64,000 bases of DNA from Octopus vulgaris (lineage: Eukaryota), in contig OX597821.1 of NCBI GenBank assembly GCA_951406725.2, positions 54,622,001-54,686,000 on the forward strand, written 5' to 3'. The notes under the pieces were generated by a model. The model searched no databases, had not been told where the DNA came from, and saw only the letters and a program-made list of their open reading frames with translations. This document shows positions 3,165 through 17,600 of this stretch, piece after piece (within the stretch, counting starts at the first letter, position 1; every line of letters begins with the position of its first letter). Both the position numbers and the translations under genes were made by a program.

Positions 3165-3208
3165 CTCATCTGATGAAGGATGGAGGGTGTATCAGCTGAA
3201 ACATGTTA
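3165..3208 (+). ncRNA. Minimal hammerhead motif, degenerate copy
   Basis: cat-CTGATGA-A-GGATG-gagggtgtat-CAGCT-GAAACA-tgtt, homologous to 2674-2720. Confidence 0.6.
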
Positions 3209-8780: not shown

Positions 8781-8810
<30 letters not shown>

Positions 8811-9461
8811 ACAAAATTAGAGAATGGAGAAACATACTTAAATCAATAAAACATCAACTATCCGATGATACTCAATCCATACTTTAATACACCATTACAT
8901 AGGAGTAAAGGCAATATATAAAATGAAATGAGATATACAGTAATAGTAAAAGTAAAAAGATAAAGAGATATAAGTAAAAAATTACAAATACAATATGCAA
9001 ATAAATCAAAACTGACAGCTGTTTCGGCAGTGAGGACAGTCATACCTCATTTAACCTATAAGCCATAAAGGCAGGTATAAATGAGGCATTAACAAAGATG
9101 CCCCACGGCCTCTTCAGAGAATTAAATTAAATTTGTTATAATAGTGAAAAATATTATATAATCATATACATATAAATATAAAAATATAAAAAAGTAAAAT
9201 ATAAAAACTTATACATCATAATGCTACACTTGTATAATATAATACACATTTGTACAAAAAGGAAGGTAACCAGAACAAAATAAAACAAAATATATAACAG
9301 TGTATATATAATATTAATAAGTACCGATATCATACATATTTAGCTAATAGTTTTTTTTATAAAAAAAAGGGCTAACCCATATGGAGATGAAAAATAATAA
9401 TAATTAAATCCGTGGTACAGTTCATAAAATTCTAAAGCTATAAAAGTTAATAAAAATTACT

Positions 9462-9501
<40 letters not shown>

Positions 9502-10430
9502 GTAATAATAATAAAAAATAATAATAATAATAAAAATAGATACAGTTAAGTTATCACCAAGTCCATCCTTCCAAGATCGAAATAACTATTATTATTATTA
9601 TTAATAGTAATTTTTATTAACTTTTATAGCTTTAGAATTTTATGAACTGTACCACGGATTTAATTATTATTATTTTTCATCTCCATATGGGTTAGCCCTT
9701 TTTTTATAAAAAAAACTATTAGCTAAATATGTATGATATCGGTACTTATTAATATTATATATACACTGTTATATATTTTGTTTTATTTTGTTCTGGTTAC
9801 CTTCCTTTTTGTACAAATGTGTATTATATTATACAAGTGTAGCATTATGATGTATAAGTTTTTATATTTTACTTTTTTATATTTTTATATTTATATGTAT
9901 ATGATTATATAATATTTTTCACTATTATAACAAATTTAATTTAATTCTCTGAAGAGGCCGTGGGGCATCTTTGTTAATGCCTCATTTATACCTGCCTTTA
10001 TGGCTTATAGGTTAAATGAGGTATGACTGTCCTCACTGCCGAAACAGCTGTCAGTTTTGATTTATTTGCATATTGTATTTGTAATTTTTTACTTATATCT
10101 CTTTATCTTTTTACTTTTACTATTACTGTATATCTCATTTCATTTTATATATTGCCTTTACTCCTATGTAATGGTGTATTAAAGTATGGATTGAGTATCA
10201 TCGGATAGTTGATGTTTTATTGATTTAAGTATGTTTCTCCATTCTCTAATTTTGTAGTATTAATTTACGGTAATATTATTACCCTTACCCATTTAATACA
10301 ATAGATGAACTGATTGCTTGACAATTTCTAACATCTATGTATTAATTTTGTTGGGTACCTATCTAGCAGTATATTGGATATATATTATCCCATGGTGGGT
10401 TGAATTTTCAACCCCTATCTCATTTTATAA
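8811..10430. mobile_element. Penelope-like non-coding element: ~670-bp near-perfect inverted repeat plus one-sided ~175-nt tail, inserted in (TA)n
   Basis: 8811-~9480 is the reverse complement of ~9587-10255 (identical 61-aa pseudo-ORF on both strands in the track; one 1-nt homopolymer indel noted). The right arm continues to ~10430. A fragment recurs at 30176-30270. Confidence 0.85.
9943..10060 (+). ncRNA. Hammerhead ribozyme motif with greatly extended stem II (inverse copy at ~9006-9123, minus strand)
   Basis: CTGAAGA (9949-9955), then GGCCGTGGGG...CCTCACTGCC enclosing ATGCCTCATTTA/TAAATGAGGTAT, then GAAACAGCTGTC (10041-10052) with palindromic ACAGCTGT stem III and GUC triplet. Confidence 0.7.
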
Positions 10431-10964: not shown

Positions 10965-11245
10965 CATTATTAGGAAATATTATACAGCTTATTATTAGGA
11001 AATATTATACAGCTTCCTTTATTTTCTTAGGAAATATTATATAGCTTCCTTAAATTTTTTAAACATTATTAGGAAATATTATACAGCTTCCTTTATTTTA
11101 TTAGGAAATATTATATACCTTCCTTAAATTTTTTAAACATTATTAGGAAATATTATACAGCTTCCTTTATTTTATTAGGAAATATTATATACCTTCCTTA
11201 AATTTTTTAAACGTTATTAGGCAATAATATACAGCTTCCTTAAAT
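10965..11245. repeat. Minisatellite of attattaggaaatattatacagcttcct units with ~76-bp higher-order period
   Basis: About 8 directly visible tandem copies. Confidence 0.9.
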
Positions 11246-17215: not shown

Positions 17216-17234
17216 ACAATATATATATATATAT

Positions 17235-17562
17235 ATATAAGGATTTTTTGCATAATAAGATAAAAAAACCAAGGTTGTATAGATATTAGAGCATTTATAG
17301 ATAGGTCTTACAGCTGTTTCTAGGATATTAAGACCTTCTATCCATAAATGCTCTAATATCTATACAGCCTTGGTTTTTAATCTTATTACACAAAAAATTC
17401 TTATATACACACACTGACATAGAACCAACATTGAACCCTTTATTCACAATATTACCGAATCTGGAACTTAACTATGGTCTGTCTATAGCACTTATTCAGT
17501 ATTACCTGACACCTTTGGGTCTCAATGACACCATTATCTCTTATAACCTCAACTTCTCGCTT
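17235..17562. mobile_element. Penelope-like hairpin-plus-tail insertion in (TA)n with half-hammerhead in the loop
   Basis: Arms ~17235-17310 / ~17329-17406. Loop reads GAAACAGCTGTA on the minus strand (17309-17320). About 150-nt unpaired tail. Confidence 0.7.
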
Positions 17563-17600
17563 ATATATATATATATATATACATTATGTATGTATGTATA

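Follow-up and report, generated by a model that had tools for sequence, protein, structure and literature searches.

The question raised by this locus is whether the head-to-head insertion at 17234-17560 of the window (the whole 64,000-nt stretch that was analysed) records the activity of a ribozyme during retrotransposition. The original prediction was that hammerhead cleavage had set the 5' end of the reverse-transcribed RNA, and that the inverted copy had then been added from an uncleaved template. We observed that the insertion is that of a Penelope-like element with a Hydra-like endonuclease in a (TA)n tract, and that it consists of two back-to-back 5'-truncated stubs; the locus itself is ordinary. 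Family positions are counted here from the base immediately 3' of the predicted hammerhead cut (GTA/AGACC), which is 0, with negative numbers upstream. The left (TA)n target lies at 17219-17239 and the right one at 17561-17582, and no target-site duplication could be resolved in the (TA)n flank. The inverted arm (17234-17331, minus strand) extends from -23..-20 to +77, through the predicted cut; it lacks 3 nt at +4..+6 (window 17302-17305), and at its 3' end, the inner fixed start site, it fades into (TA)n. The portion of the sense arm in common with it (17329-17407, plus strand; -2..+1 to about +77) is followed by a one-sided tail (17408-17560, plus strand), which stops at an outer fixed start site, +228. 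The arms form inverted repeats at 17264-17304/17338-17378 (95%) and 17234-17267/17374-17407 (88%).

As had been noted, the left arm on the minus strand reads GAAACAGCTGTA followed by AGACC (17309-17320). With at most one mismatch, GAAACAGCTGTA occurs elsewhere in the window only in the arms of a 10-kb element, at 9014-9025 (minus strand) and 10041-10052 (plus strand), which makes three matches against 0.36 expected by chance. It belongs to the 3' half of a minimal type I hammerhead motif (17305-17331, minus strand) that is complete in longer copies: the 3' strand of stem II, GAAAC, the palindromic stem III ACAGCTGT, GTA and then AGAC, the 3' strand of stem I, with the predicted cut between 17309 and 17308. 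The catalytic 5' strand (the CUGAUGA strand) is absent from the window copy, and an Rfam search of the 64-kb window gave no match at the gathering score.

The junction reads GGATAT(TAA)GACC, where arm-end calling placed the bracketed TAA (17329-17331), common to both arms, across the predicted cut position of the right arm. The left arm accordingly ends at -23..-20 and the right arm starts at -2..+1. The tailed arm had been claimed to begin essentially at the GUA cut, and it does so within an ambiguity of 3 nt; since the microhomology blurs the position, the start is compatible with the cut but not pinned to it. One copy is also weak evidence, because the rate of arm ends per nucleotide is about 0.7% outside the hot zone described below and about 2% inside it. 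In our judgement, it is rather unlikely that the right arm of this copy began at a cleaved RNA end.

We therefore turned to the family as a whole, in a genome of 2.8 Gb in 227 contigs. The window stretch had 3694 first-look candidate matches, and a 27-base tail word of the family had 474 exact matches. In long copies the end of an ORF lies about 1.1 kb upstream of the repeat, and among 12 loci fetched by this ORF end, 11 carried the repeat, 9 an endonuclease match and 4 a reverse transcriptase (RT) match, as scored against the proteins of the window's 10-kb family. Long copies thus link a C-terminal GIY-YIG endonuclease and RT remnants to the repeat, in the order known for endonuclease-bearing (EN+) Penelope-like elements. 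Two further matches were weak (GIY-YIG PDB chains at E 0.2, and an Atlas cluster with 11% PF01541), and a Pfam search of the ORFs of the second, 10-kb family gave no match. Inspection of the ORFs by eye showed that the family endonuclease has a CxCx5C linker, no CCHH, and CxxC and CxH near the C-terminus. These features, together with the (TA)n targets, are among those of the Hydra clade, and we classify the main family, on predicted proteins, as a Hydra-like EN+ Penelope-like element. Its RT and endonuclease align with those of the 10-kb family at about 29-42% over the longer matches, and the RT of the latter has RWR and DKT motifs at its N-terminus. The two elements had been described as sharing stem III and otherwise unrelated; the shared stem III was borne out and the window copy has no DNA-level match to the 10-kb element, but at the protein level the two families align.

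The terminal repeat has what is expected of an EN+ Penelope-like element, namely a hammerhead motif, an inverted truncated copy and a tail on one side. A non-LTR retrozyme does not fit, as each arm holds a single truncated copy and the upstream sequence runs to the ORF. Among inverted arms, the 3' end at +77 was by far the commonest (118 arms); the sense arms of 313 copies ended at +213 in 121 and otherwise mostly at +217..+228, with 33 at +228. An inverted 5'-truncated copy with a one-sided tail is an already-known layout in EN+ elements (Craig et al. 2021, PMC8557442; Arkhipova et al. 2013, PMC3846280), and what is new here is the family member. Like the elements described in those papers, it has head-to-head arms, a tail on one arm only, microsatellite targets, palindromic or microhomology junctions and a terminal-repeat hammerhead; its tail is longer (135-150 nt versus 30-40 in the described elements). 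The features described for the Hydra clade (CxCx5C, absence of CCHH, CxxC/CxH beside conserved E and N, a C-terminal GIY-YIG and (TA)n targets; PMC8557442) are also shared. In the anole Poseidon element PAc, both target strands are extended and two internal start sites define the tail (Frangieh et al. 2024, PMC11167929); the two fixed 3' ends of our family match these two sites of the anole element in vitro.

The complete motif in long copies is GTCT-CCGATGA-A-stem II-A-GAAAC-AGCT-GTA/AGAC. Scoring of 166 arms (out of 183) gave the core CCGATGA in 104, CTGATGA in 21 and CCAATGA in 16, and the C4 core was also present in six of seven ORF-linked motifs. As CTG and CCA look like CpG decay, the source core would be CCGAUGA (U4C). 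The family thus departs from the canonical core C3 U4 G5 A6 N7 G8 A9 at position 4, while G12 A13 A14 A15.1, U16.1, H17 and stem III are present, and the GTA triplet is kept in 156/164 arms. A G10.1-C11.1 pair closes stem II in the canonical hammerhead consensus; this pair is missing here, and the 9-bp stem II has an additional A on one side and an additional A or G on the other. Stem I has 4 bp, and stem III has 2 bp in the monomer and 8 bp in the predicted dimer. The predicted co-fold of two copies into a double hammerhead had -32.7 kcal/mol, against -9.5 per monomer. Taken together, the motif is a predicted ribozyme with a weakened variant of the canonical core. The Hydra hammerheads, in contrast, are described as canonical (PMC8557442). 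U4C 'considerably decreases activity in vitro', yet viroid infectivity was retained (PMC3088659), so that function in vivo can survive such a change in a viroid. Short-stem-III hammerheads act as dimers, and the minimal type I hammerheads of amphibian retrozymes, which are dimeric, share with our family a short palindromic stem III and a predicted double-hammerhead fold (Cervera and de la Pena 2020, PMC7229834); those retrozymes are tandem repeats of 170-400 nt, whereas ours is an ORF-bearing element whose hammerhead is predicted.

We carried out a census of arm ends, an arm end being the 5'-most element base, or an interval where microhomology blurs it (weighted evenly over the interval). Copies were sampled by tail words at least 127 nt downstream of the cut, which makes the selection blind to the junction. 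The matches sampled (90/474, 90/90, 32/39, 88/90 and 23/23 for the tail words) gave 323 loci; exclusion of four without an anchor, four with a poor anchor and two duplicates left 313 copies, comprising 195 inverted, 108 solo and 10 long. The first 30 loci, which had been picked by junction likeness, were left out of the sample. On 900 simulated junctions the caller was exact in 60% and at most 2 nt off in 85%; the ratio of called to true ends was 0.97 at 0..+10, and 15 ends were called against 16 true at position 0. A spike at -60 was rejected because the caller itself produces it at a T run (43.6 ends called versus 13 true in simulation).

The arm ends of the 313 copies, whose plot against the cut had been proposed as the test, were not uniformly distributed. 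At 0..+10 the hazard was 1.91% per nt for sense and 2.15% for inverted arms, about three times that of the flanks (0.69-1.03 at +11..+20, 1.01-1.37 at -11..-1 and 0.35-0.70 at -33..-12). The hazard ratio of 0..+10 was 1.74 (95% 1.19-2.67) to -11..-1, 3.01 to +11..+40 and 3.71 to -44..-12. The excess came to about 49/337 arms, or some 15% of the arms that reach +10. The predicted peak at the cleavage triplet was seen in part: position 0 was the highest single position (10.0 arms versus a local background of 2.1, p=8e-5), but it did not exceed +1..+10 (6.5 per nt, p=0.12). The hot zone along the hammerhead's 3' border (-7..+10) is real, and it is a plateau and not a spike. In a literature search that took in few subscription papers and no supplements, we found no published breakpoint census relative to a hammerhead, and the passages of PMC8557442 and PMC3846280 on EN+ elements hold none. 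A second hot zone, distant from the cut, was present at -67..-88 (1.1-1.9% per nt), and a further cluster of arm ends was seen at about -346..-354.

We considered that a minority of templates had been cut by the hammerhead, the RT having run off at 0 and joining having removed 0-10 nt; the -7 ends would then be a separate palindrome effect and the right arm of the window copy a cleavage product. The raised hazard with its three ratios, and the position-0 maximum, which had been predicted beforehand, are as expected from such cleavage. The excess is neither a caller artefact, given the called-to-true ratio, nor accounted for by microhomology, since a microhomology-weighted null on 137 junctions predicted about 11.5 ends per arm class where 34.8 and 29.0 were seen. 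The ends at 0..+10 were concentrated in symmetric junctions (48/112 arm ends), a pattern that two cDNAs running into a single RNA end would give, and in one copy (L349) both arms end exactly at 0. However, only 15/508 arms are compatible with position 0, asymmetric junctions had 21.8 arm ends at 0..+10 versus 14-19 in neighbouring bins, and solo truncations showed little excess (5/108). The weak core, the missing closing pair and the 4-bp stem I also speak against cutting. By inspection, the excess lay on both sides of every diagnostic subfamily allele, with no clear difference. No main-family fragment with its 3' end at the cut was found among 183 motif hits (the 24 inspected were other families or later ends). 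For PAc too, no RNA reads ending at the cut are described in PMC11167929; our family differs in having a genomic hot zone beside it. We regard cleavage of a minority of templates as a serious possibility, though less likely than not.

Read-through bears directly on this point. Arms ending upstream of the cut numbered 153/313 sense and 109/195 inverted, that is 262/508. As about half of the arms pass through the cut, the pile-up is more likely a copying stall than a proven cut. In a single-edge model the best edge was at -7 in 716/1000 bootstraps and at 0 or -1 in 130 (AIC 970.3 at -7 and 989.3 at 0), and cutting cannot place an end at -7. Twelve arms end exactly there, just after the AGCT loop of stem III (L162 was excluded as a mis-call), and three junctions are a perfect 8-bp palindrome. 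Hairpin-opening nucleases cut 2 nt past the axis of a palindrome, which is where the -7 end sits. The architecture is a known one, and our preferred reading, which we put at roughly 0.45, is that the hot zone mainly reflects RT stalling or re-alignment, or palindrome joining, on uncut RNA. The read-through arms and the -7 edge lend it tentative support, as do the near-symmetric junctions that need bases 5' of the cut (18/53). On the other side, a three-level model (high at -7..-5 and 0..+10, with a dip at -4..-1) gave the best fit (AIC 961.9), although it was selected post hoc; its second edge at 0 tells against stalling, and a dip such as that at -4..-1 would be predicted from cleavage. The claim that cleavage had set the RNA 5' end thus gains from the zone at 0..+10 and its maximum at 0, and loses from the plateau, the -7 edge, the read-through and the weak core.

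The junctions themselves pointed to two cDNAs. In 31/195 inversions the sense arm starts at or past +72, clear of the inverted arm. Where the two arms do overlap, the inverted arm extends upstream of the tailed arm by more than 10 nt in 66/164 cases. Since fold-back of the tailed cDNA can make neither, these junctions require two primed cDNAs, whereas palindromes are explained by self-priming in PMC3846280. Microhomology of at least 2 nt was present in 59/113 insert-free junctions versus 59/363 simulated ones. Paired arm ends were correlated (rho 0.48), with 56/164 within 10 nt against a permutation mean of 22.7. In the stalling model, two target-primed cDNAs, one from each target strand, would start at the fixed sites +77 and +213/+228 and be joined head to head by microhomology. 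A paired double-hammerhead RNA would stop both enzymes near one place, and the -7 ends would arise when cDNAs joined at the stem-III palindrome are then opened and trimmed. That the enzymes stall, that the RNA dimerizes and that hairpins are opened are steps that we infer for this family, and we hold them with less than even confidence.

A 3-nt deletion at +4..+6, as in the window copy, was present in 39/244 arms covering the site (16%). It recurs independently and far above other non-homopolymer per-arm indels. In arm pairs it was found in both arms once, in one arm 12 times and in neither 38 times, while a source-level deletion at -30 was found in both arms six times, in one arm once and in neither 28 times. 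This discordance, unlike the pattern at -30, suggests slippage at +4..+6 on uncut RNA, though the deletion could also postdate insertion. Subfamily alleles agreed between paired arms in 86-95% at 9/11 columns; the two columns adjoining the TA end agreed in 77-78%, and random pairing gave 47-83%. Such sharing fits one RNA as well as two RNAs from one source, so that the proposed combination of a cut and an uncut template is possible without being favoured. A transposed hairpin master behind repeated junctions was rejected, as copies with the same junction differ, on inspection, in their subfamily alleles.

Local sequence might by itself produce the zone, if the TCTA repeats and the AU-rich stretch at +4..+15 cause slipping, stopping or fold-back and the zone lies beside the cut by chance. 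The second hot zone far from the cut fits this, as does the location of the +4..+6 deletion within a short direct repeat. The microhomology null fails, however, and in a family of unrelated sequence (F2, below) the arm ends likewise gather downstream of the cut, so we consider local sequence an improbable cause. A transcription start at about -7..+10 that sets the RNA 5' end appears very improbable. No cap-like extra G preceded arm ends at 0 (0/7), as cleavage would have it, and no G excess preceded those at -11..+10 (6/47). Upstream of -110, G precedes 19/57 arm ends, possibly a weak cap signature.

We also evaluated four other hammerhead families (F2-F5) found in the fetched DNA, in small samples. 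F2 is the family of the 10-kb element, whose head-to-head insertion at 8799-10420 belongs, by sequence comparison, to a second, younger family; it has a complete CUGAAGA hammerhead at 9949-10056 (plus strand), and both its arms pass through their own cut. F2 copies are mostly 95-100% alike, with 216 exact matches to a 26-base word, and the unit is about 5.6 kb with an inner start site at +207, some 130 nt further from the cut than that of the main family. In one unit-length copy (L414:582-3462), RT, linker and endonuclease are spread over three reading frames that overlap. Among 73 F2 arms (L382 dropped), 10 end at 0..+35 and 2 at -36..-1, which favours cleavage; the nearest is at +5 and none is at 0, and five near-symmetric junctions lie wholly inside +5..+35, which tells against the stalling model.

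The samples of F3, F4 and F5 had 29, 29 and 30 copies after two seed copies were dropped. Downstream and upstream arm ends were 6 versus 5, 0 versus 1 and 9.8 versus 9.2, respectively, so that these families with canonical cores showed no combined excess 3' of the cut (15.8 versus 15.2). Pooling F2-F5 gave 25.8 versus 17.2 (p=0.24), with 2/199 arms compatible with position 0. The downstream excess was therefore repeated in one of four families and missing in three, which counts against cleavage and is in keeping with a local-sequence effect. As F3-F5 have folded hammerheads with a palindromic stem III, their lack of excess weakens the case for a general stall no less than the case for cleavage. 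Recurrent indels adjoining the cut were absent in all four families. In one F3 locus (L463), the 3' end (GTA) of a hammerhead 5' fragment is joined straight to about +65, which looks like a jump of the enzyme to the end of a cleaved RNA; this was the sole case among 181 motif hits of the four families.

What the hammerhead does in EN+ Penelope-like elements is described as unclear (PMC8557442), and in PAc cleavage is protein-assisted and dispensable in vitro, with dead-ribozyme mutants inserting normally (PMC11167929). With a hot zone of breakpoints linked to the motif, the question can be tested from a genomic read-out, although the signal failed to repeat in three of the four other families. 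We find it doubtful, though worth stating, that the hammerhead shapes integration in vivo, with a stem-III dimer aligning templates head-to-head and stopping both RTs while a minority is cut. If so, the genome would record both the dimer axis (the -7 ends) and the cut (the edge at 0), and a motif dispensable in vitro would have a function.

The same TA tracts also hold head-to-head pairs of many unrelated hammerhead families (L018, L113, L132, L150, L174, L269, L336 and L342), and several such pairs are nested directly against the main family. Within the window, decayed CTGATGAAGG...GAAA motifs at 3170 and 40710 (plus strand) and 8498 (minus strand) resemble an older hammerhead-bearing repeat. 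A tandem array with a 74-nt (32+42) period lies at 10965-11241, immediately to the right of the 10-kb element.
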